64,000 nt of DNA from Gemmatimonadales bacterium (GCA_036499125.1 DASYEH010000014.1:187398-251397); one strand, 5' to 3'. Shown: positions 14,442 through 56,018, counted from the first letter of the stretch. Made by a program: numbers and translations. Notes: generated by a model from the sequence alone, not told the origin.

Positions 14442-14457
14442 ATCGAAAGGATGTCGC

Positions 14458-15489
14458 GTGACGCTGACCTCAGCACCTTCCTCGCTCGACCAGCTCGACG
14501 ATGTGCAGCTTGCCGATCGCCTGCACGAAGCCGCGGGCCGCATCGGCATCGAGTTGCGCAAGGTGATCATCGGGCAGGAGAAGGTCATCGAACAAGCGCT
14601 GATCGCCCTGTTCGCCGGCGGTAACTGCCTGGTGGTCGGCGTACCCGGCCTGGCCAAGACGCTGCTGATCAACTCACTTGCGCGGGCGCTGGATCTGTCG
14701 TTCTCCCGGATCCAGTTCACGCCCGACCTGATGCCGTCGGACGTGACCGGTACGGACATGATCCAGGATGACCCGGTCACCGGTCACCGCCGGTTGTCGT
14801 TCCTGGCCGGGCCGATCTTCGCGAACGTCGTGCTCGCCGACGAAATCAACCGCACTCCGCCCAAGACGCAGGCTGCGCTGCTCGAGGCGATGCAGGAGAA
14901 GCGGGTGACCGTGCAGGGCAAGACGTATGCGCTGGAGCTGCCGTTCTTTGTCTTTGCGACCCAGAATCCGATCGAGCTGGAAGGCACCTACCCGTTGCCC
15001 GAAGCGCAGCTGGATCGATTCATGTTCGAAGTCGTCATGGAATATTCCCCCGAAGAAGATGAAGTGGCGGTCGTGCGCGCGACGACAACCGTGGCAGCAG
15101 ACGCGATCGTTCCGGTGGTCAGTCGCGCTGAGATCCTGGCGTATCAGCAGCTGGTGCGGCGAGTGCCCGTCGCCGATCCGGTGGTGCGGTATGCCGTCAA
15201 GCTGGTGCGCGCGAGCCGGCCAGACGACGGCGCACCCGAGTTCATTCGGCAATGGCTGGCGTATGGTGCCAGCGTGCGTGCGGCACAGGCGCTGATCCTG
15301 GGCAGCAAGGCGCGCGCGCTGTTGCAGGGAAGGTCTCACGTGAGCTTCGATGACGTGGAGGCCCTGGCTCGGCCGGTGTTGCGGCATCGCCTGTTGCGGA
15401 ATTTCCAGGCACAATCCGAGCGCGTGACGACCGATCATCTCGTTGACCGCCTGATCGCTGCCGTGCCGCGGCCCAAGTCCGGGCTCTGA
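14458..15489 (+). CDS. MoxR-family AAA+ ATPase
   Basis: LVVGVPGLAKT (Walker A), VVLADEINR (Walker B), TPPKTQAALLEAMQE, and FATQNPIELEGTYPLPEAQLDRF. Start is GTG 14458 (AAAGGA upstream) or ATG 14428. Confidence 0.9.
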   Translation: MTLTSAPSSLDQLDDVQLADRLHEAAGRIGIELRKVIIGQEKVIEQALIALFAGGNCLVVGVPGLAKTLLINSLARALDLSFSRIQFTPDLMPSDVTGTDMIQDDPVTGHRRLSFLAGPIFANVVLADEINRTPPKTQAALLEAMQEKRVTVQGKTYALELPFFVFATQNPIELEGTYPLPEAQLDRFMFEVVMEYSPEEDEVAVVRATTTVAADAIVPVVSRAEILAYQQLVRRVPVADPVVRYAVKLVRASRPDDGAPEFIRQWLAYGASVRAAQALILGSKARALLQGRSHVSFDDVEALARPVLRHRLLRNFQAQSERVTTDHLVDRLIAAVPRPKSGL

Positions 15490-35161: not shown

Positions 35162-35162
35162 C

Positions 35163-37505: not shown

Positions 37506-37525
37506 GCCGACTATCTTTCTGGGTT

Positions 37526-38209
37526 ATGCCGGAACCCGCCTTTGCCAGCCATCTGGACCAGATACGGTCTGCTATTGCGGCTGAGCAGGAGGCCGGCGGC
37601 TGGACTCATCCGGTCCGCATTATTGCGGTGACCAAGACCCATGGCGCAGAGTCGGTACGCGAGGCTGCAGCGGCCGGGTTGGGTGATGTGGGTGAGAACC
37701 GGGTGCAGGAAGCGCTCGCCAAGCAGGATGCCTGTGCAGACGTCGCGGTCGACTGGCACCTGATCGGGTCACTCCAGCAGAACAAGGTCCGGCATGCGGC
37801 CGGACGGTTCTCGCTGATTCATTCAGTGGATCGTTCCGAACTTGGCGCAGAAATCGATCGCCGGACGCCATCTGGGATGATCCAGCGCGTGCTTGTGCAG
37901 GTGAACTGTTCCGGTGAGGCGCAAAAGGGCGGCGTCACGCCGGATCAGCTTGAACCACTGCTCGAGGCAATGCGCAGCATGCCGCACCTCACGGCGGTGG
38001 GGCTGATGACGATGGCCGCACTCACCGCCGACGTGAGCACCCAACGGCGCACCTTCGGGAGGCTGCGCACGGTGCGCGACGCGATGCAAGCGAGCGGGTA
38101 CATGCTGCCGGAGCTGTCGATGGGGATGTCGAACGATTTCGAGGCCGCCGTGGCGGAAGGCGCCACCATGGTGCGTCTCGGCACTCTTCTCTTCGGAGTA
38201 CGCGCGTGA
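37526..38209 (+). CDS. yggS: YggS-family pyridoxal-phosphate homeostasis protein
   Basis: Internal ATG 37526. IIAVTKTH (PLP lysine), GENRVQE, WHLIGSLQQNKV, SMGMSNDFEAA, VRLGTLLFG. Confidence 0.85.
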   Translation: MPEPAFASHLDQIRSAIAAEQEAGGWTHPVRIIAVTKTHGAESVREAAAAGLGDVGENRVQEALAKQDACADVAVDWHLIGSLQQNKVRHAAGRFSLIHSVDRSELGAEIDRRTPSGMIQRVLVQVNCSGEAQKGGVTPDQLEPLLEAMRSMPHLTAVGLMTMAALTADVSTQRRTFGRLRTVRDAMQASGYMLPELSMGMSNDFEAAVAEGATMVRLGTLLFGVRA

Positions 38210-42284: not shown

Positions 42285-43283
42285 ATGATCTTCTCGGTCG
42301 CCGTCCCGGCTACCGAACGGCTCGACCGCTTCCTGGCCGACCAACTTGGCATGTCGCGGACTCAATCCGCGCGACTGGTCGCCGAAGGATGCGTTGCCGT
42401 GGCTGGTAAAGCCGCGCGGGCGTCGCGGACGATGGTGTATCAGGAAGTGGTCGACATCACTGAGCCGGATCGTCCGCCACCGCGTCAGTTCATGCCGCGG
42501 GAGCTGGACCTGTCGGTCGTGTATGAGGACGAACACCTGGCGGTGATCGACAAGCCCGCTGGACTCGTCGTTCATCCGGCGCCCGGTCATTGGGACGACA
42601 CCCTCGTCAACGCCCTGGTCGCCCGCGGCACGACGCTCGCTGGCGGCGCGGAAGGGCGGCCCGGCATTGTCCATCGGCTCGACCGCGACACGTCGGGACT
42701 GATCCTGGTGGCCAAGAGCGAAGTCGCGCATCGCAAGCTGAGCGCAATGATCGCGGCCCGCCGCGTCACCCGGGTCTATGCGGCGCTGATCTGGGGGCAC
42801 CTCGACGCCAGCCCGCTCGTCATTGATGCCCCGATCGCCCGCGACCTCCGGGACCGCAAGCGGATGGCGATACTAGCCGATGGCCGCCGGTCGCGGACCG
42901 ACGCCTTCGTGGCGGCCCGCCTGGGGTCGATGGATCTGGTTCGCCTCGAGCTGCACAGCGGCCGCACCCACCAGATCCGGGTCCACCTGGAGTCGGTTGG
43001 GCATCCGATTGTCGGCGACCCCGTCTACGCTGGCGGTGGGTCACGGCGGATTTCCGGACCGGAGCGGCTGGAAGCCCGGCGGTTGGAGGCGCTGGCGCCC
43101 CGGCAGGCGCTCCATGCGGCGCTTCTGGCGTTCCGCCACCCGATCACCGCCGAACCGCTTCGGGTAACCGCGCCGTGGCCGGCAGACCTCTGGCCGCTGC
43201 TGGAAGCCACCGTCGGGGCCGGGGTGGTTGCCGGCCGCGAGGTGGCGCTGCAGGCTCTGGGATTCTTCCCCGATGATGGCTGA
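42285..43283 (+). CDS. rluD: 23S rRNA pseudouridine synthase, RluD/RluA family
   Basis: Internal ATG 42285. S4 domain (RLDRFLADQLGMSRTQSARLV), catalytic HRLDRDTSGLILVAKS, and HQIRVH. Confidence 0.9.
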   Translation: MIFSVAVPATERLDRFLADQLGMSRTQSARLVAEGCVAVAGKAARASRTMVYQEVVDITEPDRPPPRQFMPRELDLSVVYEDEHLAVIDKPAGLVVHPAPGHWDDTLVNALVARGTTLAGGAEGRPGIVHRLDRDTSGLILVAKSEVAHRKLSAMIAARRVTRVYAALIWGHLDASPLVIDAPIARDLRDRKRMAILADGRRSRTDAFVAARLGSMDLVRLELHSGRTHQIRVHLESVGHPIVGDPVYAGGGSRRISGPERLEARRLEALAPRQALHAALLAFRHPITAEPLRVTAPWPADLWPLLEATVGAGVVAGREVALQALGFFPDDG

Positions 43284-43638
43284 GGCCGGTGCGGGGATCA
43301 GCGGTATCGTGGTCCAGTCCATGGGGTCGCGTTGGCTGGTGCCGGTTGCAAGCGTGATTGAGGTGCTCCGCGACGCCCGGCTGATCCGGGTTCCCGGCGG
43401 GGTGCCGGCCGTCCGGGGGCTGGCCAATCACCGGGGGCGGATCCTGACGGTCGCTGATCCGATCCGGGCGCTGGAGCTCCCTGGCGACAGCGGAGCGGCC
43501 CGGGAAGTGGTGGTAGTAGAGTGGGCCGGACGCCGGTTCGGGCTGGCGGTGGACGGCGTGGTGGAGCTGGGCCGCGAGGCGCGCACGGGCCTTGCAGAAA
43601 TCGACCTCGAACGGATCGCAGCGGCAATCTTTGCCTGA
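43273..43638 (+). CDS. cheW: Chemotaxis coupling protein CheW
   Basis: Internal ATG 43273, overlapping the rluD end by 11 nt. IRVPGGVPAVRGLANHRGRILTVADP and FGLAVDGVVEL match the CheW-like domain. Confidence 0.8.
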   Translation: MMAEAGAGISGIVVQSMGSRWLVPVASVIEVLRDARLIRVPGGVPAVRGLANHRGRILTVADPIRALELPGDSGAAREVVVVEWAGRRFGLAVDGVVELGREARTGLAEIDLERIAAAIFA

Positions 43639-43654
43639 CGACTCTGGGGGAACA

Positions 43655-44020
43655 ATGGGACAACGGATCCTGATCTGTGACGATGCGATCTTCATGCGGA
43701 CGATGATCGCGGACATTCTCACCGGCGCCGGTTACGAAGTGGCCGGCGAAGCGGAAAGCGGGCTGCAGGCGGTCGAGCGCTACAAGAGCGTGAAACCGGA
43801 CCTGGTCACGATGGATATCGTGATGCCCGACATGGGCGGCATCGATGCGGTCAAGGCGATCGTCGCCGCCGACCCGAACGCCCGGATCCTGATGTGCAGC
43901 GCCATGGGTCAGCAATCGCTGGTGGTCGAGGCGATCCAGGCCGGCGCCAAGGATTTTGTGGTCAAGCCGTTCCAGCCGGCCCGGGTCCTCGAGGCCGTTC
44001 AGCGCGTCCTGGCGGGATGA
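43655..44020 (+). CDS. cheY: Chemotaxis response regulator CheY (single receiver domain)
   Basis: GGGGG RBS before ATG 43655. ILICDDAIFMR, phospho-acceptor DLVTMDIVMPDMGG, SAMG, and FVVKPF. Confidence 0.9.
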   Translation: MGQRILICDDAIFMRTMIADILTGAGYEVAGEAESGLQAVERYKSVKPDLVTMDIVMPDMGGIDAVKAIVAADPNARILMCSAMGQQSLVVEAIQAGAKDFVVKPFQPARVLEAVQRVLAG

Positions 44021-45522
44021 CTGACGCGCGGCGCGCCCGGTACGTCGCGCTCTTCGCGACCGAAGCGCGCTCGCTGTTGAGCGGTGCGCGTCGTGCGCTC
44101 GATCGGTGGCACGACAACCCCGACGATGCCGATCCGGCTGAAGAAATTTTCCGGGCGCTGCATACCGTCAAGGGAATGGCCGCCTCGCTGGAGTTTGCTG
44201 AGGCCGCCGAACTGGTCCACGCCACTGAGTCCACCCTGAGCGACGTCCGGCGCGGCGACACCGCTGTCACTACCGCCTGGCTTCACGATTTCGCCATCGA
44301 GCTTGATGCGGTCACGGCCAGCTGCGAGCGGGCGGTGGACGACGCCGGTGGCACGCCGGTCGCGGCGAACTCGTCGGCCCCCCGAGGTCCGCGCATCGTC
44401 CGCGTCGACCTCGATCGCCTCGACGCACTGATGGCCGACCTCGGCGGGCTGGTCACTGCACGGCAGGAACTGGAGCGTCGTGCCGACGCCGACGCGCTGT
44501 CGCCCATCGCGCAGGCAGCAATGCAGATGGCGCGGCGGCTCGATACGCTGCAAGCGCGCATCCTGGATGTCCGCCTGGCGCCGCTCGCCGAGGTGCTTGA
44601 GCGGGCACCACCGCTGGTGCGTGACGTCGCGCGCCAGTTGGGGAAGGATGTGCAGGTCGACATCACGGGCGACACGCTCGAAGTCGACCGCGCCATCCTC
44701 GATCAGCTCGCCGAGCCGCTGCTGCACCTGCTGCGCAACGCCGTCGATCACGGCATCGAAACGCCCGAGGTGCGTCGGGCAGCCGGCAAGCGCCCGGTGG
44801 GACGCATCGCGGTCGCGGCACGCCAGGACGGCGACGCGGTTGTCCTGGAAATCACCGACGATGGCCGCGGCGTCGATCGCGAGGCCGTGGCTGCTCGCGC
44901 CCGCGCCCTGGGGATGCTTGATGCCGATGCCACGCTCACCGATGACGGTCTCCTCGGCCTGCTTGAGCGGCCGGGCTTCTCGACCGCGTCGAGAGTCACC
45001 GATATCTCCGGCCGCGGCGTCGGCCTCGATGTCGTGGTCGCGCGGATGCGCGACATCGGCGCGTCGCTGACGCTCACCACTGTGCTCGGGCACGGCACCG
45101 TCTTTTCCTTGCGACTGCCGACGCGGCTCGGGATCGTCCGTGCCCTGGTCACCCGCGTGGGTGACGAACGGTACGTCATGCCATTGATGCACGTGGTCGA
45201 ACTGGTGCCGTGGGCACGCGAGCTGGTGACTCAAGTGAACGGTCGCGCAACTCTGCGGGTGCACGATCAGGACCTGCCGATCGTGGACTTGCGGCGCCTG
45301 GTGCAGTTTCGCGGTGACGACGCGCCGGCGCACCGTCCGGCAATCGTGGTCGAGGCGAACGGTCAGCGAATGGCGTTGCTGACCGACGCGATCCTCGGCC
45401 AGGTGGACGCTGTGGTGCAGGCAATCGACCGACCGGCGGGGCTGGCGCGCTGGATTACCGGCGCAACGGTGCTGGATGACGGGCGGCCAGCGTTGTTGAT
45501 GGATCTGGCGAGTGTGGTGTGA
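44017..45522 (+). CDS. cheA: Chemotaxis histidine kinase CheA
   Basis: ATGA overlap with cheY. HPt HTVKGMAASL, N-box HLLRNAVDHGIE, G1 DDGRGVD, G2 GRGVGLDVV, and a C-terminal CheW-like domain. Confidence 0.9.
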   Translation: MTDARRARYVALFATEARSLLSGARRALDRWHDNPDDADPAEEIFRALHTVKGMAASLEFAEAAELVHATESTLSDVRRGDTAVTTAWLHDFAIELDAVTASCERAVDDAGGTPVAANSSAPRGPRIVRVDLDRLDALMADLGGLVTARQELERRADADALSPIAQAAMQMARRLDTLQARILDVRLAPLAEVLERAPPLVRDVARQLGKDVQVDITGDTLEVDRAILDQLAEPLLHLLRNAVDHGIETPEVRRAAGKRPVGRIAVAARQDGDAVVLEITDDGRGVDREAVAARARALGMLDADATLTDDGLLGLLERPGFSTASRVTDISGRGVGLDVVVARMRDIGASLTLTTVLGHGTVFSLRLPTRLGIVRALVTRVGDERYVMPLMHVVELVPWARELVTQVNGRATLRVHDQDLPIVDLRRLVQFRGDDAPAHRPAIVVEANGQRMALLTDAILGQVDAVVQAIDRPAGLARWITGATVLDDGRPALLMDLASVV

Positions 45523-45524
45523 TG

Positions 45525-45613
45525 ATGGCTGATGGCAGATGGCAGATGGATGCACTTGTGCAGAACGCTGCGGAGTCGGGCCGACGCAGCCATTAGCCAT
45601 CAGCCATCAGCCC
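45525..45613. repeat. Inverted arrays of the heptamer ATGGCTG/CAGCCAT flanking an inner hairpin (cheA-cheC intergenic)
   Basis: Left arm: atggctg atggcag atggcag atggatg (45525-45552). Right arm: cagccat tagccat cagccat cagccc (45587-45613). Inner stem GCTGCG/CGCAGC (about 45568-45590). Confidence 0.85.
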
Positions 45614-45635
45614 AAAAACAATCCGGAGAACGCGC

Positions 45636-46259
45636 ATGACCTCACAGACGAACGACCTCGACAGCCTCCGCCGCGACGCGCTCGGCGAAGTCGCCACCAT
45701 CGGTGCAGGACACGCCGCGACGGCGCTGTCGCAGCTCACCGATCGACGGATCATGATCTCGGTGCCGCACGTCCATCGGATGTCGTACGCCGAAGTGCCG
45801 TCGATGGCCGGTGTCTTCGGCGATCACATCGCCGTGGTCGCGATGCGGATGCTGGGCGACCTCACCGGCCGGGCGCTGCTGATCTTCGGTGAACGCGATG
45901 CCACCCGTCTCTGCGACCTGATCCTGCGCCGCCCGCCCGGCCCGCCGCGGGTGCTCGGTGAGCTGGAGCAGTCGGGACTCAAGGAGGTTGGCAACATCGT
46001 CTGCTCGGCGTACCTGACAGCGCTCAGCAACTTCATGGGGATGATGCTCCTGCCGTCGGTGCCTTCGTTGACAATCGGGCCGACTGATCACGCCGTGGCT
46101 GCGACAGTGGACGCGGCTGAGGCAAGCAGCGATCTGGTGTTCTGCGTCGACACGGCGTTTCGTGCCGAGGGCGCGGAGGACCCGCTGACTGGCGCGTTTC
46201 TGCTGATGCCCGATCAGGCATCAGTGCGCGCCATCCTCGAGGCGATCCGGCTCGACTGA
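45636..46259 (+). CDS. cheC: CheC-family CheY-P phosphatase
   Basis: GGAGA RBS. Two CheC repeats: DALGEVATIGAGHA...(22 aa)P and SGLKEVGNIVCSAY...(22 aa)P. Only the second keeps the E-x2-N consensus. Confidence 0.8.
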   Translation: MTSQTNDLDSLRRDALGEVATIGAGHAATALSQLTDRRIMISVPHVHRMSYAEVPSMAGVFGDHIAVVAMRMLGDLTGRALLIFGERDATRLCDLILRRPPGPPRVLGELEQSGLKEVGNIVCSAYLTALSNFMGMMLLPSVPSLTIGPTDHAVAATVDAAEASSDLVFCVDTAFRAEGAEDPLTGAFLLMPDQASVRAILEAIRLD

Positions 46260-46260
46260 G

Positions 46261-47394
46261 ATGCCGGCGGCACGCTCTCGCGACGCGCAGATCGTCGCTG
46301 CACTGGGGCGCCGTCTGGCTGCGGCCGACGCAACCACGCTCACCAACTTCGCGTGGTTCGCGGCGCGGCGTGGTGCCCATCCCGCTGCCCTCGAGGCGGC
46401 TCGACGAGCCGTCACGCACGGTGACGCACCCCGGGCCGCATGGCGCGCATTGGAGCGGCTGGCGGCCGGCCGCACGGATGGCATGCTGCTCACTGCCGAC
46501 GCCGCCGAGCCTGCGGCGCCTGAGCCACCCCGCAACCCGCTCGCAGCAGCCGTGTCAGCCCACGCCCAGGGCCAGCTCGCCGTGGCCGAGGCATGCTATC
46601 TCGCCGCGCTGCCGCAGGACGCGCTGGCCGCCGCTGCATCAAACGGGCTGGCTGTGTTGCACGAGCAGCGTCGTGAGCGCGCCGCCGCCGACGCCGCCTG
46701 GCAGCACTCCGTCGCCGAGGGCAACGTGGCCGGCCGGCATAACCAGGCGTTGGCAATGCTGCGGCGGGGATTGCCACATCGAGCTCGGGCCAACCTCGCA
46801 CCGCTGGTCGTCGGCGCTGGCGCGCCCGCCGTGCTGCGCTTCCTGGCGGGGTACGCCGCGCTCGCTGACCAGGATCCCCATGCGGCGATCGCCATCCTGA
46901 CGACCCCCGGGCTCGACGAATCGGCGCGGGCACAGTTCACGCTCGGACTCGCGTGTGAGCGACTGGGCCGGCATGACGAGGCGCTGGTCGCCATCCGCCG
47001 CGCACTGCTGATGTCGCCCTGGTACGCACCGCAAGTCTGGTTGCTGCAGGCGACCGCCGACGCAGCGCTGACGGAAATTCCGGCGGACCTGGGCGAGTCG
47101 GGCGCGCTGGCGCACACCGCCGATGTGCTGCTGTCACTGGGCCGGTCATTGCTGCAGACCGGACACCTGGGCGAAGCACTTGCCGTGTTCGATCAGGTCC
47201 TGACGCAGCAGCCGTCCGAGCCCGCAGCCCTCTTTCATCGCGGCGTCGTGCTGGCCAAGCTGCGGCGATACGGCGAAGCACTTGACGACTGGGAACGCGC
47301 CGGACAGGCTGATCCCGCCAGTGAACTTGGCGACGCGAGCCTGCGGCATGCGCGCTCGGCGCGGCAACTCGCCACGCTGTTCGCGAGTCGCTGA
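46261..47394 (+). CDS. TPR-repeat protein
   Basis: Starts 1 nt after the cheC stop. Ala/Leu-rich helical repeats, with recognisable TPR units near the C-terminus (LGRSLLQTGHLGEALAVFDQVLTQQPSEPAALFHRGVVLAKLRRYGEALDDWERA). Confidence 0.6.
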   Translation: MPAARSRDAQIVAALGRRLAAADATTLTNFAWFAARRGAHPAALEAARRAVTHGDAPRAAWRALERLAAGRTDGMLLTADAAEPAAPEPPRNPLAAAVSAHAQGQLAVAEACYLAALPQDALAAAASNGLAVLHEQRRERAAADAAWQHSVAEGNVAGRHNQALAMLRRGLPHRARANLAPLVVGAGAPAVLRFLAGYAALADQDPHAAIAILTTPGLDESARAQFTLGLACERLGRHDEALVAIRRALLMSPWYAPQVWLLQATADAALTEIPADLGESGALAHTADVLLSLGRSLLQTGHLGEALAVFDQVLTQQPSEPAALFHRGVVLAKLRRYGEALDDWERAGQADPASELGDASLRHARSARQLATLFASR

Positions 47395-47395
47395 G

Positions 47396-48322
47396 ATGCA
47401 CGGGCCGCTGGATGAAATCGGCTTGATCGAAGTGCTGCAGTTGCTGCAGCGGGGACGGCGCAGCGGCGTACTCCGCGTGAGCGGGGCCGACGTCGACTTG
47501 CCGCATGACATCGTCATTGCCGAAGGCCTGATCGTCGCGCTCCTCCCGGAAGCCGGTGACGCTGCCACTCTTGCCGCCCTCGCGGCGCGCCACCTGGTCA
47601 CCAGCAGCGAGACCGCCGATGATCCGCTCCTGCTGGCCCAGCCGGCGGCGGCCGACGCGCGGGGGCAACTCGCTCGGCACGCGCTCGCCACCATGATGCA
47701 CTGGCAACGTGGCCGGTTCGACTTTGCCGAAACACCGCCCGCCGCCGGTCCGCTGTCGCTTTCGCCGGAAGCGCTGGTGTTCGACCTGGTGAGTGCCGAG
47801 AGCCAACGTGTCGAACTCGCCGAGGCCCTCAACGATTTTCACGCGGTCCCTGACTTTGTCGCCGATGACCTGCTGGCCCAGGGGGCAATCCCGGAGCTGA
47901 CGCCGCGTGACTGGCGCATCCTCGACGCGATCGACGGTCGTCGCGACGTCGCAGCGGTCGCGGCTGCCGTCGCCGAGCCGATCGCGGAGGTAGCGGCCCA
48001 GATTCAGGCGCTGCAGGCTGCCGCTATACTTGAGCTCCGTCGGCCAGCCGCCGACGGCGGCGTGGCGGCCCGGGCGGCGATCGAAGCGGGACGGTACGAG
48101 GAGGCAGCCACCTTGCTGCGTGCCCGGCTCGCGGAACACGGTGGCGACGGTGAAATGTGGCGCGCACTCGGACTCGCCGAAGTGGGCGCAGGGCGATTCG
48201 AACACGCCATCGACGCGTGGCAGACCTGGCGCGATGCTGATCCCGGTCGTGCCGGGGACGCTGTTGCACTGATGCAGGCGGCCCGGACCATGGTGGAGGC
48301 ACTGCGCGACGCTCGTGAATGA
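47396..48322 (+). CDS. PATAN/DUF4388 domain protein with C-terminal TPR-like region
   Basis: ATG lies 1 nt after the upstream stop. The N-terminus GPLDEIGLIEVLQLLQRGRRSGVLRV fits the DUF4388 signature (G-L-x3-L-x-D/E-hLQ-x-h-x4-G-x-L). The C-terminus has RYEEAATLLRARL... helices. Confidence 0.65.
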   Translation: MHGPLDEIGLIEVLQLLQRGRRSGVLRVSGADVDLPHDIVIAEGLIVALLPEAGDAATLAALAARHLVTSSETADDPLLLAQPAAADARGQLARHALATMMHWQRGRFDFAETPPAAGPLSLSPEALVFDLVSAESQRVELAEALNDFHAVPDFVADDLLAQGAIPELTPRDWRILDAIDGRRDVAAVAAAVAEPIAEVAAQIQALQAAAILELRRPAADGGVAARAAIEAGRYEEAATLLRARLAEHGGDGEMWRALGLAEVGAGRFEHAIDAWQTWRDADPGRAGDAVALMQAARTMVEALRDARE

Positions 48323-49064
48323 CCTGCCCGCAACCCCCGGACGTCACGGCTTCGCCTTTCTTGAACTCGGCGAACGTCTGCGCCAGCGTGGCCAGTTCGC
48401 GGCGGCGGCGTCGGTCGCGTCGGCCGGACTGAGCCGATATCCCTCGGTGGCCGACGCCCACGATCTGCTGGCCCGGATTCGCGCCGACCAGGGCGACGAT
48501 GCCGGCGCCGTCGCCGCGTGGCATGCCGCGCTGGAATGCGATCCGGTGCACATCGGCGCGCGAAAGGGACTCGCCTTCGTCGCGTTCCGGGCTCACGACT
48601 TCGTCAATGCAGAGCGCCATCTCGACCTCGCCGCAACGCAGGCGCCCCACGACGCATCGGTCCTGGCGGCACTTGACCGGGTGCGCGCCGCAGCACGGCA
48701 GCGCCCCGGCGACGAATCGCCGGAGCCGGGCGATCCTGGCAGCGGGCTGATCCTCTACGACATGCAAGGGCTTCGGCTTGCCGGCAGCATTGACCAGGAC
48801 AGCGACGATGCGGACGCTGACGCGGCGGCCGCGACGGGCGCCGGACTCACCAGTGAATCGGTCCGGGTGGCCCGCCTGCTGCAGCTCGGCGCGGTCCGCC
48901 ATCTCATCATCGAGGCGGCCGACGCTCGCGTCATCATGATGCCACTCACCGCCGACGCCGCGTTGCTGCTCCATCGCGGGGCTACAACACCGCTGGGCCG
49001 TCTGCTGGCTCTTGGCTCGCGCGCAACGGTCGCTGCCCGGGCGTGGCTGGAGCGAATGGCATGA
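48315..49064 (+). CDS. TPR N-terminal half fused to a Roadblock/LC7 (MglB-like) C-terminal half
   Basis: 8-nt overlap. The N-terminal half has TPR-like helices. The C-terminal half (GLILYDMQGLRLAGS...VRHLIIEAADARVIMMPLTADAALLL) follows the Roadblock alpha-beta pattern. Domain call made by eye only. Confidence 0.55.
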   Translation: MNDLPATPGRHGFAFLELGERLRQRGQFAAAASVASAGLSRYPSVADAHDLLARIRADQGDDAGAVAAWHAALECDPVHIGARKGLAFVAFRAHDFVNAERHLDLAATQAPHDASVLAALDRVRAAARQRPGDESPEPGDPGSGLILYDMQGLRLAGSIDQDSDDADADAAAATGAGLTSESVRVARLLQLGAVRHLIIEAADARVIMMPLTADAALLLHRGATTPLGRLLALGSRATVAARAWLERMA

Positions 49065-49414
49065 GCATCGCTCGCTGGGAGAATGCCTTGCGTGAAGTGA
49101 CGCGCGTACCGGGTGTGCTGGGCGCGCTGATCATCTCTGCTGACGACGGTCTGGTGGTTGCTGAGTCGTCCATGGATGAACTTGCGACCGCCGACGTGGC
49201 AGCCTTGTCGGCAGCACTGATTCTTCGCGCGTCGCGCTGCATGAGCGCGATGGGGAAGGGCGCCCCCGGGAGCGTGCACCTGGTCGGCGACGCTGGCGCA
49301 CTCCTGGCCGTCGCTGGCCCGGCACCGCTCTGGCTGGTGGCCGTCGCGCATGGCGACGCCGAACTCGGCCGCGTGCGCTTGTTGTTGCGCGACTTTGCCG
49401 TGGTGCTCGCCTGA
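49061..49414 (+). CDS. Roadblock/LC7 domain protein (MglB-like)
   Basis: ATGA overlap. VPGVLGALIISADDGLVVAES...ADVAALSAAL...LVGDAGALLAV...LWLVAVAH, and the size (117 aa), fit Roadblock/LC7. Confidence 0.7.
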   Translation: MSIARWENALREVTRVPGVLGALIISADDGLVVAESSMDELATADVAALSAALILRASRCMSAMGKGAPGSVHLVGDAGALLAVAGPAPLWLVAVAHGDAELGRVRLLLRDFAVVLA

Positions 49415-49881
49415 TGCGCGTGCTGGAGCCATGGGTCACGGCACCGTTGACCGAGTTCCTGCGAGAATCGTCGGCCCGGCTCGCACTGGTGATGACCAGT
49501 TCGGGACAAGTCATCGCACAGCACGGGTTCACCCGGTCGGTTGATGTCATGTCGGCGGCCGCGCTGGGTGCCGGCATTCTCGCTACCACAACCGAGATCG
49601 CGACGATGGTCGACGCGCCCGCCGGATTCGGCGCGGTCGTGCACCAGGGTGCAGCGCAGGGGATCTGGCTCGCCGGATTCGACACCCCGCGCGGGCGGTG
49701 GATCGGACTGGTAGTCTTTGGCCCCGAGTCGACGGTCGGGTTGGTGCGAATGTTCTTCGCCCGGTTTGCCGAACAGGTGGCGGCGGCGACGCCCGCCGTG
49801 GTGCCGGTCCGCGATGTCCTCGCTGAGGGCTTCGAGCGCGAGCTCGACGACTCGCTGCGCGCCCTGTTCGGGAGCCGTTGA
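49414..49881 (+). CDS. Roadblock/LC7-like protein (divergent, third consecutive copy)
   Basis: TGATG overlap. ARLALVMTSSGQVIAQHG...DVMSAAALGAGILATT...GIWLAGFDT...IGLVVFG shows the same strand/helix periodicity as the preceding gene. Confidence 0.5.
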   Translation: MRVLEPWVTAPLTEFLRESSARLALVMTSSGQVIAQHGFTRSVDVMSAAALGAGILATTTEIATMVDAPAGFGAVVHQGAAQGIWLAGFDTPRGRWIGLVVFGPESTVGLVRMFFARFAEQVAAATPAVVPVRDVLAEGFERELDDSLRALFGSR

Positions 49882-49883
49882 CG

Positions 49884-50489
49884 ATGGCACGCATGGATGA
49901 AGCGCAACGTGACCTGACACTCACCGTGGTGGTGTACGGTGCGCCGCGGGTCGGCAAGACGTCCATCTTGCACTGCATTCAGGACCGGGTCGCGCCGGAG
50001 CGGCGCACCGGGCTGTCACCGCTCGGCACCGACTCCGGAGTGGCCACACTGCTCGACTGGCTGCCGCTGGAACTCGGTACGATCGGCGGCTGGAACGCGC
50101 GGGTCCACCTGTACGCCATTCCGGATCAGCGGCACGCGGATTCGACGCGACGGGTCATCCTGGGCGACGCGGATGGCGTGCTCTTCGCCGCCGACGCGCA
50201 GGCCAACCGCAGTGGGGATAACCTCGACGCGTTGCGCAGTCTGCAGAGCAATCTCGAGGATGCCGATGGCCTGCTGCGTCAGGTTCCGACCGTGTTCATG
50301 TACACCAAGCATGACTTGCCGGCCGAGCTGCTGCTGTCACGACCGGCGCTTGACCAGGAGCTGAACCCCGCCGACGCGCCGAGCTTTTCCGTCAGTGCGC
50401 TGCGCGGCGAGGGCGTGCTGGAAGCCTTGCACGCGACCATCAGCATGGTGATGCGGCGCCTGGTTGGCCCCGGAACGCGAGCCTCGTGA
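49884..50489 (+). CDS. MglA-like Ras-superfamily small GTPase
   Basis: G1 GAPRVGKTS, G3-equivalent LYAIPDQ (MglA has TVPGQ), G4 TKHD, G5 SALRGEG. ATG 49884 has a GGGAG-like RBS; TTG 49878 (TTGA overlap) is the alternative. Confidence 0.75.
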   Translation: MARMDEAQRDLTLTVVVYGAPRVGKTSILHCIQDRVAPERRTGLSPLGTDSGVATLLDWLPLELGTIGGWNARVHLYAIPDQRHADSTRRVILGDADGVLFAADAQANRSGDNLDALRSLQSNLEDADGLLRQVPTVFMYTKHDLPAELLLSRPALDQELNPADAPSFSVSALRGEGVLEALHATISMVMRRLVGPGTRAS

Positions 50490-50490: not shown

Positions 50491-52452
50491 ATGGCGCTCC
50501 TGAATCCGCACGCGCGGTTCGCGTCGTTCGTCGTCGGCTCGTCCAATCGGCTGGCAGCCACGGCCGCCAAGACGGTGGCCGAGGCGCCCGGCGCCGCGTA
50601 CAACCCGCTCTTCTTCTATGCCCGGCCCGGCCTGGGCAAGACGCACCTGCTCAGCGCAATCGGGCACGAAGCGCAGACGATCGATCCGTCACGCGTGGTG
50701 GAATACGTCACGGTCGATGACTTCGTCGAGGCATACCACACTGCGCTCGCGGCGGGACAGGCTGAGGCGTATCGGCGTCGCTTCACCGACGCCCATCTCG
50801 TGCTCCTCGATGACGCTCAGCTGCTCAGCGATCAACGTGAGCTGCAATCCGAGTTGCTCCGGCTGATTGACCTGCTGATGGCAGCCGATCGCCAGATCGT
50901 CCTGGCGAGCGACCGTCCGCCGGAAGAGATCCAGTCGCTCGACGAGCGGCTGATCCGTCGCTTTGCCGGCGGACTGGTCATCGACATTGGCGCGCCGGAC
51001 TATGAAACGCGACTCGCAATCCTGGCCCGCCGGGCGACGGAACGACAGACGACCTTTGCGCCGGAGGTGCTGGCCACCGTCGCGGAACTGCCGATTACGA
51101 CCGTCCGGGAACTGCTCGGTGCGCTGAACCGCCTGATTGCCCAGCAGGCGGTCGCGGGTGCGCCGGTGGGTGTCGCCGAAGCGCGCCGAGTGCTGGCTGC
51201 ACTGGGCCATGGCAAGGCCTCACCAGCGCCGGTTCTGGCTGACCTCGATCTGCTCCCGCCACCCGCCGCACCGGGGATCCACGAAGAGTTCACGTCATTC
51301 CTGTCGGACGTGTCCACGGCCGTCTCGCAGCAGGTGGATCGTTGGCGGCAGCGGGTCACCGAAGCGGCGTTGCGTCTTGGGGGCGAAGGATTCCACACCG
51401 GCCGCCTTGATGCGCTCCTCGCCCGCGAGATTGCCGTCGATCCGGCCGCTGCGCTGGCCGCATTCGAGGCCGATGTCGATCTGCTTCGACAGTTGCAGGC
51501 AGAGATCGCGCTGCTGGCGCCGACGCTGCTGATGGAGGCGGCGCTGCATGATCCCGATCGGGTCGCGGAGGCCGAACTGCTGGTGGTCGAGGCGCGCGAA
51601 AGCGGCGAGCCGTTACCGGCGCCGCTGGCGCGGTACACCCTCGCACAGTTCGCCGAAGGAAGCGGCACGCGGCCCGTGGTTGAAGCGATCCGGACCGTCG
51701 CCGAAGGCCCGGGGCAGCGTTACAACCCGCTGGTGATCGTCGGCAAGTCGGGCGTGGGCAAGACGCACTTGCTCCATGCGTTGGGCCACGCGCTCAAGGC
51801 AACCGGGCTCAATCGGGTCGCCGTGTTTGACGGCAAGGATTTTGTCGACGGCCTGGTCACCGCACTGGGTGATGGCACGATTGCCCGGTGGCGGCAGCGG
51901 TTGCGGCGAGCTGATGCATTCCTGCTCGACGATGTCGGCGTGCTTGCCGGGAAGGAACGCAGTCAGGAAGAGTTGTACCTGCTGTACAACCTGATGCTCG
52001 AGTCCGGTCGGCAGATGGCATTCACCGCCAGCGTGACGCCGGCGCACCTCACTGGCTTCGAACCCCGACTGGCGACGCGCTTGGCCGGCGGGCTGGTGGT
52101 GGAACTCGGTCCGCCTGATCGCGACGCCCGCATTCATGAGGCCACGCGCCTGCTCGGCGTTGGTGTCGCTGATCCCGACCTGATCGAGTATCTCGCTGCG
52201 CGGCCGGCCGGCTCGCTGCGCGAACTGCAGCAGCTGATTCAGCGCCTGGTCGCTGCGGCGGAGCAGCGAGAAACGGCGCTGACGATGGACGTGGCACGCG
52301 CCATCCTCGAAGGCAATCGCGTCGCCATCGTCCGCCAGCCGCGGCGCAGCAGCGGATTGCTGGCGCCCGGCAGTGGTGCCATTCGTTCGCGCGAGAAGAT
52401 GATCGAGACGTGGCCGGACATCTCCGAACGCATGCTTGAGGAGTGGACCTGA
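50491..52452 (+). CDS. Protein with two tandem DnaA-type (domain III) AAA+ ATPase modules and no DnaA domain IV
   Basis: Module 1: NPLFFYARPGLGKTHLL, VLLDDAQLLSDQRELQ, IVLASDRPPEEI, RLIRRFAGGLV, TVRELLGAL. Module 2: NPLVIVGKSGVGKTHLL, FLLDDVGVLAGKERSQEEL, RLATRLAGGLV, SLRELQQL. Linker of about 170 aa. No DnaA-signature HTH at the C-terminus. Confidence 0.8.
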   Translation: MALLNPHARFASFVVGSSNRLAATAAKTVAEAPGAAYNPLFFYARPGLGKTHLLSAIGHEAQTIDPSRVVEYVTVDDFVEAYHTALAAGQAEAYRRRFTDAHLVLLDDAQLLSDQRELQSELLRLIDLLMAADRQIVLASDRPPEEIQSLDERLIRRFAGGLVIDIGAPDYETRLAILARRATERQTTFAPEVLATVAELPITTVRELLGALNRLIAQQAVAGAPVGVAEARRVLAALGHGKASPAPVLADLDLLPPPAAPGIHEEFTSFLSDVSTAVSQQVDRWRQRVTEAALRLGGEGFHTGRLDALLAREIAVDPAAALAAFEADVDLLRQLQAEIALLAPTLLMEAALHDPDRVAEAELLVVEARESGEPLPAPLARYTLAQFAEGSGTRPVVEAIRTVAEGPGQRYNPLVIVGKSGVGKTHLLHALGHALKATGLNRVAVFDGKDFVDGLVTALGDGTIARWRQRLRRADAFLLDDVGVLAGKERSQEELYLLYNLMLESGRQMAFTASVTPAHLTGFEPRLATRLAGGLVVELGPPDRDARIHEATRLLGVGVADPDLIEYLAARPAGSLRELQQLIQRLVAAAEQRETALTMDVARAILEGNRVAIVRQPRRSSGLLAPGSGAIRSREKMIETWPDISERMLEEWT

Positions 52453-54074
52453 TGGCCATCAAGGGTTCACTCAAGGAAGCGTCGCTCCCCGATGTCGTCC
52501 AGCTGCTTTTCCTGGGCCGGCGCACCGGCTGTCTTGCCGTCGCCAACGACCGGAACTTCGGCTCGATCTGGTTCGAGGAAGGATGGATCACCTTTGCCGG
52601 GATGGTCACGCGTCTCGACCGGATCGGCGAACGCCTGGTCGCGGCCGGCAAGTTGACGCCGGAACAACTCGACGCGGGCATGGCAGCGCACAGCGCCACC
52701 CCCGGCACGCGCCTCGGTGAGATGCTGGTGCATCTGGGTCATGTGACCGCCGGCGAGCTCGCTGCGGAACTCAAGCTGCAGGTCGAAGAGGCGGTGTACA
52801 CGCTCTTCAGCTGGACCAGCGGCACCTTCTCCTTTGAAGTGGGCGCGCGGCCTGATACACCGGATGTCGCGCTGCGACTCAATCCCGAAGGCCTGCTGCT
52901 CGAAGGCGCACGCCGCGTGGACGAGTGGAGCATCATCGCCAAGAAGATCACGACCGTCGAGGCCGTCTACGGGTTCGAGGGCGAGGCAATGACGCCGCCG
53001 GTTGGCGATGCACCGGTGATGGAGTCGGAGCGCCGCGTGATGCCGTTCATCAATGGCGTCAACACCGTGCGCGAGATCGTCGATCAGACCGGATTGAGCG
53101 AGTTCGAAGTGTGTCGGGTGCTCTTTGGCCTGCTGTCTGCGGGGCGGCTCCGGCGCCTGGCAACAGCGCCACCGCCGCCGCCGCGCGAAGATCTTTCCCG
53201 CGTCGACGAGCATCGCAATCTCGGCATCGCCTTCTATCGGACCGGGATGTACACCGAATCCGAGCGGGAGTTCCGCCGCGTCGCGGAACTGCGGCCTACC
53301 GATGCGATCGCGCCATTTCACCTCGGCGGCATCGCGCTGCGGCAGGCCCGCTGGCAGGACGCCGTCGACCAGCTCCATCGCGCGGCCGAGCGTGACGGCG
53401 GCCGCGTGGCCGTGGTACACAATCTGGCGTTGGCGCTCGAAGCCGCCGGGCGGCTGGACGAGGCCGACGCGGTGCTGGTCGCCACTGTGCAGCGTCATCA
53501 TCACGACGCACGCCTCTGGACCGCGTGGGGATTGCTTGCCTTGCGCCGCAACGAAGCACCGCAGGCGTTGGAACGTTTTGCGCGCGCTCGCGACCTGCTG
53601 GGTCAGGAGACGCCACCGGCGCGCTGGTTCTGGGGATGCGGCTGGGCACAGGCATTGTCCGAAGCGTGGCCCGATGCGATCGGTACGGTGCGGGAAGGGG
53701 TCAACGCGTATCCCGATCATCCGGTGCTTCGCACCACCCTTGCCGTGTTGCTCGAAGGATCTGGTGAAGTCGGAGAAGCCGAGGCGCACTTGCGTCATGC
53801 GCTCGGAGAAGAGCCGACCATTCCACAGATTTCCAAGAATCTCGGTGACTTGCTCTATCGCGCAGGACGTTGGGACGAAGCGGAAGAATCGTACGATCGC
53901 GCCACCCGGCTCGCGCCGACGCTCGGGGACGACATCTACTTCAAGCTGGGCAACCTGGCGTGTCGGCGCGGCGATCTGGTGACGGCTCGGCGGCACTGGG
54001 AGCAGGCGGTGACGCTGAATCCCGAGCACGCACTCGCGCGTGCGAACCTTGCCGGATCGGGCACCGCCGCATGA
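52452..54074 (+). CDS. PATAN/DUF4388 domain (with helical insertion) fused to a C-terminal TPR array
   Basis: TGATG overlap (alternative start 52443). MAIKGSLKEASLPDVVQLLFLGRRTGCLAV is the DUF4388 signature. A helical insert (RLGEMLVHLGHVTAGELAAELKLQ) is followed by at least 6 TPR-like units. Confidence 0.7.
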   Translation: MAIKGSLKEASLPDVVQLLFLGRRTGCLAVANDRNFGSIWFEEGWITFAGMVTRLDRIGERLVAAGKLTPEQLDAGMAAHSATPGTRLGEMLVHLGHVTAGELAAELKLQVEEAVYTLFSWTSGTFSFEVGARPDTPDVALRLNPEGLLLEGARRVDEWSIIAKKITTVEAVYGFEGEAMTPPVGDAPVMESERRVMPFINGVNTVREIVDQTGLSEFEVCRVLFGLLSAGRLRRLATAPPPPPREDLSRVDEHRNLGIAFYRTGMYTESEREFRRVAELRPTDAIAPFHLGGIALRQARWQDAVDQLHRAAERDGGRVAVVHNLALALEAAGRLDEADAVLVATVQRHHHDARLWTAWGLLALRRNEAPQALERFARARDLLGQETPPARWFWGCGWAQALSEAWPDAIGTVREGVNAYPDHPVLRTTLAVLLEGSGEVGEAEAHLRHALGEEPTIPQISKNLGDLLYRAGRWDEAEESYDRATRLAPTLGDDIYFKLGNLACRRGDLVTARRHWEQAVTLNPEHALARANLAGSGTAA

Positions 54075-54907
54075 GCGACGACCTGATGGAACCGTTGGAG
54101 CGCGAGTTCGCGCGGCTGAAGGAAGTGATTGCTGCCGGGCCGCCGCCAGCAGAACGAGGCGCCGTGCGCGCCGAGATCGTCGCTTTGTTCCGGCGGACTG
54201 AGGTGGCCGTCGCCGAGCTCACCGGATTCAAGGAGCGGATCCGCGAGCTGGTCGACGCCGTCAAGGCGCTTCCCGACGCGCCCGCTATATCGGTTCGCCA
54301 CGATCATATCGGCGCGTCCACTCATATCGAACGCGGCTGGAGCGCGATTGCCTCGGGCGACTGGGCGATGGCCCAGCGTGAGCTGCAAACGGCCGCGTCG
54401 CTCGATGGTACCAACGTGGTGGCGCCGGCGCTGCTCGGCTGGGCGCTCATGTACGAGAATCGTTATGACGAAGCGCTCCAGATCTGCCTGCAGGTGCTCC
54501 TCCGCGAGCCAGAACAGGGGCTCGCCCGTGTGGCGGTCGGGGCGATCTGCCTGCGCAAGGGGATCGTCGGCGAGGCGATCGAACACCTCTCTCGCGCACT
54601 GGCTCGGTCAACTGATGCCCGAGTCTCGTTGTACGCGAACTTCTGGCTCGGCGCGGCGTATCTCGAGCGGGAGATGCACAACGATGCCATCGAGTTCCTG
54701 CGTCGCGCCGTGTCGCTGGGGCCCAACCTCGCGGAAGGATGGACCGAGCTCGGCCGCGCGCTCTGGCTTCGCGGGCGGCACGCCGAGGCCAATGAAGCCT
54801 GGCAGGTCGGGGCCGGAATCCGCCATTCGCCGCATGCCCGCCGGTGCAGCGAGTTGATTGCGCTTGTTGCTGGGGGAGGGACGCCGCCACGTTCGCCCTT
54901 CGCCTGA
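54071..54907 (+). CDS. Coiled-coil plus TPR-repeat protein
   Basis: ATGA overlap. Internal ATG 54071 of ORF 53870..54907. TPR-like units (WAMAQRELQTAASLD, YDEALQICLQVLLREP, GEAIEHLSRAL, HNDAIEFLRRAVSLGP, HAEANEAWQ). Confidence 0.6.
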   Translation: MSDDLMEPLEREFARLKEVIAAGPPPAERGAVRAEIVALFRRTEVAVAELTGFKERIRELVDAVKALPDAPAISVRHDHIGASTHIERGWSAIASGDWAMAQRELQTAASLDGTNVVAPALLGWALMYENRYDEALQICLQVLLREPEQGLARVAVGAICLRKGIVGEAIEHLSRALARSTDARVSLYANFWLGAAYLEREMHNDAIEFLRRAVSLGPNLAEGWTELGRALWLRGRHAEANEAWQVGAGIRHSPHARRCSELIALVAGGGTPPRSPFA

Positions 54908-55794
54908 TCGTTGCGCTCGCCCAGCTCGCGGCTCCGCTTCCAGAGCGGCGCATCGAGGTGGGCGACGTGACAGTGATTGCCGACCAGGCTCATATCGGCT
55001 TGGCCACCTCGCTCGGCGAGGCCGCCGATGTACCGCATGACTGGATTGGCCTCGGGCGTCTCGATGCCGGGCGGCAGACCATCGTTCTGGTCACCGATCA
55101 ACGCGATTTCGCGCGGGTCTCGCATGGCAGGATTCCCAGCTGGGGCGCTGGTGCGACCTTTCCGGGGAGTCACCTGATCATCATCCGGCTCGACGGCGGC
55201 GACCCGTTCCAGACGCTGGCCCACGAGCTCGCGCACGTGGCGCTGCACCAATCGGTGCATCAGCGGGTGCCGCTCTGGTTTGACGAGGGGTACGCGGTGG
55301 TGGCAGCGCATGAGTATGGCCGTTTTGCCGCCTTGCGTCTCAACCTTGCCGTGGCGATGGGCCGGGTGCCGGAACTGCGGGCGCTCGATGCGGCGTTAAG
55401 GGGAACGGATACCGAGGCCGAGTCTGCCTACGCCCTGGCCGGGTCGGCGGTGGCCGAGTTGGGGCGCCGGAGCCGGAATGGCCAGTTGAGCGAGTTCATG
55501 GCGCTGCTGCGGGCCGGACTTCCCTTTGATGAGGCCGTCCGGCGTGGCACGGGCCTCACGGTCGATCAGTTTGAGGAGCGTTGGATCGCGTCGGTCCGAT
55601 CGCACTACAACTGGCTTGTCTGGCTGGCTACCGGGGGGATGTGGTTGATCGTGGCCTTGGGGCTCAGCGTTGCGGCGGCGTCGCGAAAGCGGCGAGAAGC
55701 CCCTCGGCGGGCGGCCCTGGACCAGGGGTGGCCGGAGCCGGTCGAAGATGACGAAACGATTACGATTGAAGCTGTTGGACCACCTTCAACTTGA
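54844..55794 (+). CDS. MA-clan zinc-metallopeptidase-like protein (HELAH-x16-E) with C-terminal TM anchor
   Basis: HELAHVALH at 55222-55236 and the Glu of WFDEGYA at 55285. C-terminal helix LVWLATGGMWLIVALGLSVAAA. Start uncertain (ORF start 54844 overlaps the upstream gene by 64 nt). Confidence 0.6.
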   Translation: MQRVDCACCWGRDAATFALRLIVALAQLAAPLPERRIEVGDVTVIADQAHIGLATSLGEAADVPHDWIGLGRLDAGRQTIVLVTDQRDFARVSHGRIPSWGAGATFPGSHLIIIRLDGGDPFQTLAHELAHVALHQSVHQRVPLWFDEGYAVVAAHEYGRFAALRLNLAVAMGRVPELRALDAALRGTDTEAESAYALAGSAVAELGRRSRNGQLSEFMALLRAGLPFDEAVRRGTGLTVDQFEERWIASVRSHYNWLVWLATGGMWLIVALGLSVAAASRKRREAPRRAALDQGWPEPVEDDETITIEAVGPPST

Positions 55795-55826: not shown

Positions 55827-56018
55827 ATGCCACCAACAGTGTCGAATCTCGAAGCTCGCGCGTCGCTCTTTACGCGTCGCAACCTGCTACTGATTGGCGT
55901 GGCGATTTTGACGATCGCCGCCGGGTACGCAGTGCTTGTCCACGGAGCGGCCAGTGCGGCGTCCGTGCTGCTCGTGATCGGTTATTGCGTGCTTTTTCCG
56001 CTGGCGCTCATCATCTGA
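55827..56018 (+). CDS. Small two-TM membrane protein (DUF3098-like?)
   Basis: Internal ATG of ORF 55791..56018. RRNLLLIGVAILTIAAGYAVLV and a second hydrophobic helix. Family call tentative. Confidence 0.4.
   Translation: MPPTVSNLEARASLFTRRNLLLIGVAILTIAAGYAVLVHGAASAASVLLVIGYCVLFPLALII

Follow-up and report, generated by a model that had tools for sequence, protein, structure and literature searches.

A tandem DnaA-type AAA+ protein without DNA-binding domain, conserved in a GTPase/Roadblock/PATAN operon of Gemmatimonadota

What would a protein built from two copies of the DnaA ATPase module be doing in an operon of GTPase and Roadblock genes? The question is raised by an open reading frame (ORF) at positions 50491 to 52452 of a 64,000-nucleotide stretch of DNA from a Gemmatimonadales bacterium (GCA_036499125.1 DASYEH010000014.1:187398-251397), hereafter the window. 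The encoded protein of 653 amino acids (aa) is called here DnaA2 or the tandem protein. With ATP bound, DnaA oligomerises head to tail, each ATP site being completed by the box VII arginine of the adjacent subunit. Its domains I and II serve DnaB recruitment and self-interaction, and its domain IV binds DnaA boxes. To our knowledge, DnaA domain III is known almost solely as an origin-melting engine, besides Hda and the helicase loaders. A preliminary description, made from the sequence, had proposed that the ORF consists of two domain III modules without domains I, II and IV, and that it serves a role outside replication.

The composition of the protein was confirmed by Pfam, by alignment and by an AlphaFold2 (AF2) model. 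Bac_DnaA (PF00308) matched the tandem protein in two stretches (E 7.7e-86). The first half aligned with the entire domain III (IIIa plus lid) of Bacillus subtilis DnaA (8bv3 residues 7-230, E 1.7e-49) and so did the second (8bv3, E 1.8e-34), with a module identity of 40% to that domain, while the match of the second half to Hda (3bos) was weaker (E 2.7e-10). Compared with each other, the two halves were 36% identical (E 3e-38). The AF2 model, built on a family alignment of 44 sequences, had a mean predicted local distance difference test score (pLDDT) of 89.9, and its best match in the PDB was domain III of B. subtilis DnaA, with a template modelling (TM) score of 0.95 on the target and a root-mean-square deviation (rmsd) of 1.4 Å. 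The PDB sequence matches were to DnaA for both halves, including the Thermotoga and Aquifex proteins, with Hda and DnaC/DnaI-type loaders matching the second half only. Since no other proteins were matched and the top folds were DnaA domain III, the sequence places the tandem protein in the AAA+ initiator clade (DnaA/DnaC/Orc/Cdc6). As judged by alignment only, both modules also run through the initiator-type helical insertion without large gaps. The gene and its parts are, in window coordinates:

50491-52452, plus strand: tandem DnaA-type AAA+ protein DnaA2, 653 aa (ORF, translation, Pfam)
50500-51198, plus strand: N-terminal DnaA domain III module, aa 4-236 (alignment to 8bv3)
51217-51282, plus strand: disordered connector, aa 243-264 (AF2 pLDDT below 50)
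51283-51603, plus strand: family-specific helical linker domain, aa 265-371 (conservation, model)
51625-52311, plus strand: C-terminal DnaA domain III module, aa 379-607 (alignment to 8bv3)
52312-52449, plus strand: C-terminal tail, aa 608-653 (disordered in the AF2 model)

Both halves had been described as carrying the full DnaA motif set. Every motif quoted in support was found in its place, and the set was indeed complete in the first module, with Walker A K50/T51, Walker B D107/D108, sensor I D141/R142, box VII R153/R157 and sensor II R206. The second module keeps Walker A K424/T425, Walker B D480/D481, box VII R526/R530 and sensor II R577, but its sensor I is degenerate, with S514/V515 (TASV) in place of the conserved Asp and Arg. 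The lengths given for the parts outside the modules were too large: the region between the modules measured about 140 aa (237-378) instead of about 170, and the tail extends for about 46 aa beyond the second lid instead of about 65.

The connector is weakly conserved and gapped in the family alignment, and the helical domain that follows it carries conserved EEFxxFL, GEGFxTxRL and DPDR motifs. When folded alone (aa 258-385), the linker gave an all-helical model with a pLDDT of 90.4 and a predicted TM score (pTM) of 0.74. The linker domain had no match in the PDB by profile or by fold (best fold E 5.3), nor any in Pfam or NCBIfam. The tail holds a conserved peptide, RSxEKM(V/I)xxWP....L(I/L)EE (aa 632-651), in which E635, K636, W641 and P642 reach at least 90% conservation, or are invariant, across the 44 sequences. 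The linker motifs and the tail peptide are conserved to the same degree as the ATPase cores.

The remaining domains of DnaA are absent. Domain I (DnaA_N, PF11638) gave no Pfam match in the tandem protein, whose residue 3 is already paired with B. subtilis DnaA residue 110, where domain III begins. The helix-turn-helix domain IV (Bac_DnaA_C, PF08299) gave no Pfam match either. Profile-profile comparison (hhalign) of domain IV with the linker and with the tail returned probabilities of 0.1% and 2.6%, respectively, and a tblastn search with domain IV of five canonical DnaAs found no match in the window and 86 other loci (1.56 Mb). A remnant of domain IV in the linker or tail was ruled out by these results. 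They bear out the proposed lack of a DnaA helix-turn-helix in the tail and support an internal duplication of domain III without the duplex-DNA-binding domain. One sequence from ENA (P0248, on a 1.6-kb contig) shares 75% identity with a tandem-family N-module in its domain III but carries an alphaproteobacterial-type DnaA_N, matching P0292 at 62% and with alphaproteobacterial relatives. An assembly chimera is the likeliest explanation, ahead of a genuine hybrid gene.

Is this architecture a property of one genome or of a family? In a scan of one genome per GTDB species, relatives were found in 213 species genomes, the best 80 of which were all Gemmatimonadota (41-77% identity). A profile-free search of 1.84 billion representatives returned full-length, single-stretch matches down to 33% identity; hence, the linker and the tail belong to the family signature. 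The 119 closest other clusters listed were 62-80% identical and nearly all of about 650 aa, with three entries truncated. The metagenome-assembled genome of "Candidatus Cloacimonetes bacterium 4572_55" encodes a 66% relative of P0171, which stands for a divergent branch. The tandem DnaA is a vertically inherited family, conserved across Gemmatimonadota and present in at least one other lineage of the FCB group. We found no description of a tandem DnaA-module protein in the literature, in keeping with the earlier remark that it is not a described family.

Among 77 Gemmatimonadota orthologues, the first-module residues K50, D107/D108, D141/R142, R153/R157 and R206 were invariant or nearly so, R142 of sensor I being replaced by Cys in 2 of the 77. 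The same held for K424, D480/D481, R526/R530 and R577 of the second module, where sensor I (514/515) was the sole variable catalytic motif. This pattern points to strong constraint, with purifying selection acting on both P-loops, the Walker B motifs, the box VII arginines and the sensor II arginines. In a neighbour-joining tree of the modules (200 bootstraps), the N-modules of the family clustered together and so did the C-modules, except for P0171, whose two modules fell among the canonical DnaAs; a few modules of variant or MshEN-fused proteins fell within the N- and C-module groups. Canonical DnaA and most MshEN-fused modules lay between the two groups, with Escherichia coli Hda outside. 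Support for the deep nodes was negligible, and therefore we make no claim on the origin of the duplication.

The genomic setting was examined with gene calls from the source contig (674 kb, JGI 3300036781 Ga0376653_0000026; locus L001, with L001 coordinate + 40490 = window coordinate). The order runs ileS, a DksA-type zinc finger gene, lspA and rluD, then the genes listed below, then a further TPR gene, rsmH, ftsL, ftsI and murE. Synteny was counted in 80 species genomes, using for each gene only the loci long enough to include it:

43273-46259, plus strand: Che gene block (L001 gene calls, Pfam)
43273-43638, plus strand: CheW, 32/56 genomes
43655-44020, plus strand: CheY, 54/56 genomes
44017-45522, plus strand: CheA, 56/56 genomes
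45636-46259, plus strand: CheC (Pfam), 57/59 genomes
46261-47394, plus strand: TPR protein, 377 aa (Pfam TPR families), 53/59 genomes
47396-48322, plus strand: PATAN (DUF4388) and TPR protein, 308 aa (DUF4388 E 4.1e-12), 67/67 genomes
48315-49064, plus strand: TPR and Roadblock fusion, 249 aa (Pfam TPR_2, Robl_LC7), 68/68 genomes
49061-49414, plus strand: second Roadblock/LC7 protein, 117 aa (Robl_LC7 E 5.2e-7), 56/72 genomes
49414-49881, plus strand: MglB-like Roadblock/LC7 protein, 155 aa, 74/74 genomes
49884-50489, plus strand: MglA-like small GTPase, 201 aa, directly upstream of the tandem DnaA gene, 75/75 genomes
50491-52452, plus strand: tandem DnaA gene
52452-54074, plus strand: PATAN and TPR protein, 540 aa (DUF4388 E 6.8e-33), directly downstream, 75/75 genomes
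54071-54907, plus strand: TPR protein, about half of the 80 genomes
54958-55794, plus strand: Peptidase_MA_2 protein, about half of the 80 genomes
55827-56018, plus strand: 63-aa protein, about half of the 80 genomes

The MglB-like protein matched Myxococcus xanthus MglB over its full length (6izw_B, E 1.6e-7) and the GTPase matched M. xanthus MglA (5ymx, E 2.1e-30). A single nucleotide separates the TGA of the GTPase gene from the ATG of the tandem DnaA gene (50491), and the tandem gene ends in a TGA that shares bases with the PATAN-TPR start codon (TGATG at 52450-52454), as the preliminary description had it. The 1-nt gap upstream and the overlap downstream indicate that the GTPase, tandem DnaA and PATAN-TPR genes would be translationally coupled. 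In all 75 genomes the tandem gene is thus flanked by the MglA-like and PATAN genes and not set in a dnaA-dnaN locus, and neither the gene calls nor the synteny counts revealed a conserved replication gene nearby. The entire operon arrangement persists at 33% identity of the tandem protein. Gene calls and synteny hence supported a setting among GTPase/Roadblock signalling genes rather than replication genes.

Three further observations concern the surroundings. In the window, yggS (37493-38209) adjoins ileS, and the dcw cluster lies downstream of the operon; this fixed position beside division genes may or may not be meaningful. A MoxR-type AAA_3 ATPase is encoded at 14341-15489 and a 1286-aa DUF4175 protein about 3 kb further on (18460-22320), a pair that resembles what we take to be a Bat/aerotolerance-type operon. 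Neither this pair nor a homologue of TMEM260-like O-mannosyltransferases (35019-37505) is related to the tandem DnaA.

Two of the neighbouring proteins show sequence changes or motifs that bear on function. In the MglA-like GTPase of the window, the arginine finger position is occupied by Val and PGQ is changed to PDQ. The MglA homologue carries a near-invariant TDRTLFFDF, with the intrinsic arginine finger, and YTVPGQVY in 42 of 77 species genomes. In the other 35, which include the clade of the window, switches I and II are highly variable and the arginine finger is lost, with the P-loop retained; PGQ is replaced by PDQ, PAE, PGV, SGR and others. This second class looks like a GTPase becoming a pseudo-GTPase or a constitutively bound form. 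We found no compensation between MglA decay and the motifs of the tandem DnaA, whose catalytic residues are invariant in both MglA classes. The downstream PATAN-TPR protein (52452-54074) has two MshEN-type 24-residue cyclic di-GMP (c-di-GMP) motifs, RIGERLVAAGKLTPEQLDAGMAAH and RLGEMLVHLGHVTAGELAAELKLQ, in the helical insert of its PATAN domain (aa 54-113), as this motif has been defined (PMC5013675). It scored 44.8 bits against NCBIfam NF053729 ("c-di-GMP motif, MshE-related"; cutoff 38) and matched the PilF GSPII domain weakly, which suggests that it is a c-di-GMP receptor. PATAN serves as an output domain and in Synechocystis attaches to the type IV pilus motor (bioRxiv 10.1101/2021.06.11.447907), and it was linked earlier to MglA/MglB neighbourhoods (PMC4316618).

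Which of these partners belong to the core of the system? Two distant loci (L093 and L094, one of them on a 3.58-Mb contig) hold only Roadblock, tandem DnaA, PATAN-TPR, Peptidase_MA_2 and a small protein, with no MglA or Che genes. Directly upstream of the tandem gene lies a homologue of the MglB-like sequence (35% identity) in L094 and a Robl_LC7 protein, as assigned by Pfam, in L093. The chromosomal site matches that of the operon described above, with yggS, divIVA, PNP_UDP_1 (nucleoside phosphorylase family), ileS and rluD upstream. In the Cloacimonetes-type locus, the genes are CheW, CheY, CheA, an AAA_16/STAND-like ATPase, a second CheW, CheC, TPR, PATAN and tandem DnaA, and neither MglA nor MglB is present. 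A 1168-aa variant of the tandem DnaA is followed by PATAN-TPR and then TPR genes. A PATAN-TPR orthologue adjoins every full-length tandem locus that we inspected, with the exception of that of a receiver-fused protein (P0199). The partner kept most constantly is thus the PATAN(-TPR) protein and, after it, the MglB-like Roadblock protein, whereas MglA and the Che genes are lineage-specific additions. The coupling to a small GTPase proposed previously stands for the adjacency, seen in 75 of 75 Gemmatimonadota genomes, but does not extend to a core association.

Fusions of related proteins complete this picture. P0199 (L092, 9249-11465) is a tandem DnaA with a C-terminal receiver domain, and its neighbours encode Hpt-REC-Hpt-REC proteins, a PAS hybrid histidine kinase and an HD-GYP response regulator. 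In P0196 and P0207 (about 1900 aa), as well as in smaller neighbours, an MshEN c-di-GMP-binding domain is fused to DnaA-type modules. Such MshEN-DnaA genes form runs (L085, 4309-15923; L091, 2681-13179) coding for proteins of 246 to 1990 aa with one or two modules; in both contigs the run sits between the prepilin peptidase gene pilD and pilB, and L085 continues with pilT and pilC. We found no literature description of an MshEN-DnaA family in type IV pilus clusters. In P0235, TPR repeats are joined to a DnaA module. DnaA modules without domain IV hence recur with c-di-GMP sensor, TPR and phosphorelay partners, either fused or adjacent. It is this gene context, together with the domain fusions, that suggests a non-replication role for the tandem DnaA.

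We propose, with a probability of about one in two, that the tandem protein is an ATP-driven switch or scaffold that self-assembles in the manner of DnaA within a polarity/c-di-GMP signalling module, and that it is not an initiator. It would be a subunit of a cytoplasmic module whose obligate partners are the MglB-like Roadblock protein and the PATAN-TPR protein predicted to bind c-di-GMP. In Gemmatimonadales this module would be extended by the MglA-like GTPase, by more Roadblock, TPR and PATAN proteins, and by a CheW-CheY-CheA-CheC phosphorelay. Each module would bind ATP, with the box VII arginine completing the ATP site of the neighbouring module both within and between chains. ATP would favour assembly in the head-to-tail manner of DnaA, to be reset by hydrolysis at the first site with its full catalytic set, whereas the second site, because it lacks sensor I, probably hydrolyses slowly and is regulatory. 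The helical linker and the C-terminal peptide may dock partners, the tail possibly into a TPR groove. Its output would lie not in origin firing but in the spatial regulation of an envelope, motility or division process; PATAN at the pilus motor, MglA/MglB and the MshEN-DnaA pilus loci offer analogies that make a surface or polar machine the probable target. What was observed directly are the architecture, the integrity of the motifs, conservation, synteny and fusions; self-assembly, partner docking and output are our inferences.

A bolder form of this proposal, which we put forward tentatively and hold to be possible at best, is that evolution made initiator-clade modules into a switch or scaffold that polymerises depending on nucleotide and works apart from replication. 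Roadblock, tandem DnaA and PATAN-TPR would form the ancestral unit; in it, an MglB-like Roadblock dimer would regulate an AAA+ ATPase and not a small GTPase, and c-di-GMP would enter via the MshEN-type motifs, which lie in the partner protein in this operon and are joined to DnaA-type modules in the pilus clusters of relatives. If true, this would be a new class of bacterial polarity/cytoskeletal ATPase, parallel to MglA/MglB and ParA/MinD.

Several observations weigh against the switch or scaffold. The pTM of the AF2 model is only 0.52, which does not fix the relative placement of the modules. Residues that contact single-stranded DNA (ssDNA) in DnaA are kept in the second module, where, on inspection by eye, the V211 position is hydrophobic and K-E-R stands at that of R245; the protein may therefore bind nucleic acid. 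In 29 more divergent representatives, the arginine finger of the first module was kept in 13 and its sensor I in 16, the second-module arginine finger being retained in 24; given these losses in the first module, one mechanism may not serve the whole family. The dcw division cluster is often found downstream of the operon, an arrangement that a cell-cycle role would fit equally well, and with the proximity of divIVA the protein may have such a role. Type IV pilus genes are absent from the window and from within 10 kb of the gene in Gemmatimonadota loci, so that the output in this phylum is not assignable to pili. A direct link to type IV pili in Gemmatimonadota was accordingly rejected; it holds only for the MshEN-fused relatives.

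The main rival is a replication or cell-cycle regulator directed at DnaA. Its modules would co-assemble with DnaA, capping or poisoning the filament or stimulating ATP hydrolysis in an Hda-like manner through the box VII arginine, and origin firing would thereby be tied to polarity, c-di-GMP or chemosensory signals. Hda, a DnaA relative without DNA-binding domain that regulates DnaA (regulatory inactivation of DnaA, RIDA), provides the precedent. The modules are far closer to DnaA than to other AAA+ proteins, as the identity and rmsd to the B. subtilis domain show, both arginine fingers are under the constraint described for the 77 orthologues, and the retained ssDNA-contact residues of the second module would also fit. 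So would the location between ileS-rluD and the dcw cluster, or beside divIVA in distant members. However, inspection revealed no N-terminal clamp-binding motif of the Hda type (QL[SP]LPL), the N-terminus reading MALLNPHARF where E. coli Hda has QLSLPL, and the Hda model TIGR03420 scored 162.1 bits, below its cutoff of 194.8. No replication gene is conserved nearby, and related modules are fused to receiver, MshEN and TPR domains, with some relatives in pilus clusters. We thus regard a DnaA-directed regulator as rather unlikely. Less probable still, and by a wide step, is an ATPase that handles ssDNA, for example incoming DNA in pilus-dependent uptake, via the initiator-specific motif of DnaA. 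The AAA+ core of DnaA domain III binds ssDNA, PDB entry 3r8f was among the matches, the MshEN-DnaA fusions lie between pilD and pilB/pilT/pilC in two loci, and the R245-position residue is retained in the second module of the window protein. The contact positions are, however, conserved neither in the first module nor family-wide, pilus and competence genes are missing near the Gemmatimonadota loci, and the operon partners are signalling proteins.

Could the protein simply be the divergent replication initiator of the organism? The NCBIfam DnaA equivalog TIGR00362 gave it 411 bits against a whole-protein cutoff of 343.9, which is passed only because the scores of the two modules sum, and a 100% identical protein (P0001) is named "chromosomal replication initiator protein" at JGI. 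The NCBI name of P0001 is just "DnaA/Hda family protein [Gemmatimonadales bacterium]", and the family is nearly confined to one phylum. As an initiator, the protein would moreover have neither the domains that recruit the helicase (I and II) nor the one that binds DnaA boxes (IV). The gene never lies beside dnaN-type genes, being always flanked by MglA/Roadblock and PATAN genes, and in two near-complete chromosomes it is found at 0.55 Mb and 1.4 Mb; we give this explanation hardly any credence. As little weight goes to a role as NTPase in anti-phage defence or conflict. A single PADLOC match (mad8, E 1.5e-8), covering 77 residues around the second P-loop, and weak similarity to STAND-type NTPase models in Pfam would speak for it, but these reflect generic P-loop similarity, and four neighbours tested had no PADLOC match. 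The gene is syntenic, vertically inherited and held at a fixed site between housekeeping genes phylum-wide, without an island-like distribution, and a defence system was therefore discarded.

The reading of the tandem protein as a signalling switch or scaffold consequently stays the preferred one, and the interpretation given in the preliminary description is, as a whole, partly supported. The architecture of the protein is new for an AAA+ ATPase of the initiator clade, and its role is probably new as well and non-replicative. A tandem version under constraint throughout a phylum would show that the filament-forming initiator AAA+ fold has been reused for signalling or polarity. Gemmatimonadota are an abundant and little-studied soil phylum, and the tandem DnaA offers a testable entry into their cell biology as well as a potential new class of Roadblock partner. 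There is also a practical side. Database names for the protein are generic or wrong, and the pass of TIGR00362 together with the initiator name at JGI, which many relatives share, can mislead origin prediction as well as the annotation of genomes.

How does the tandem protein compare with known systems? Both modules share with DnaA the fold of domain III and the order of motifs (GxGKTHL, LLxDD, RLxxR[FL], VRELxGA), but the tandem protein has two modules per chain, a new helical linker, a conserved tail and a signalling operon. Like Hda, it is of the DnaA type and without DNA-binding domain, and its second module matches Hda weakly; Hda, however, consists of one module only, about 230-250 aa long, and has a clamp-binding motif, and the tandem modules are much nearer to DnaA than to Hda. 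The p97, NSF and ClpB proteins belong to another AAA+ clade and form closed double-ring hexamers. With these type II tandem AAA+ proteins (p97/Cdc48, NSF, ClpB) the protein shares two AAA+ modules per polypeptide, one of them catalytically degenerate, yet Foldseek gave TM scores of 0.24-0.31 and an rmsd above 12 Å, with matches per module, and the tandem modules are of the initiator clade and separated by a 140-aa linker.

The closest parallels at the level of the operon lie in polarity and c-di-GMP signalling. We know of no DnaA-type ATPase in the Myxococcus MglA/MglB module, and our literature searches found nothing that links a DnaA-like ATPase with Roadblock, PATAN, MglA/B or MshEN. As in the PatA-type PATAN proteins of cyanobacteria and the MshEN receptors, the helical insert of the downstream PATAN protein matches the 24-residue MshEN motif; the PATAN proteins of this operon differ in carrying TPR instead of receiver domains, and their c-di-GMP binding is predicted only. 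In common with the MglA/MglB and Frz systems of M. xanthus and Thermus, the operon contains homologues of MglA and MglB, Roadblock and TPR proteins and a Che-type phosphorelay. It departs from them in that the MglA of the window has no intrinsic arginine finger and in that the Roadblock/tandem DnaA/PATAN core also exists without MglA. The logic resembles that of Myxococcus, where Frz acts on MglA/MglB and then on TPR effectors (PMC4316618).

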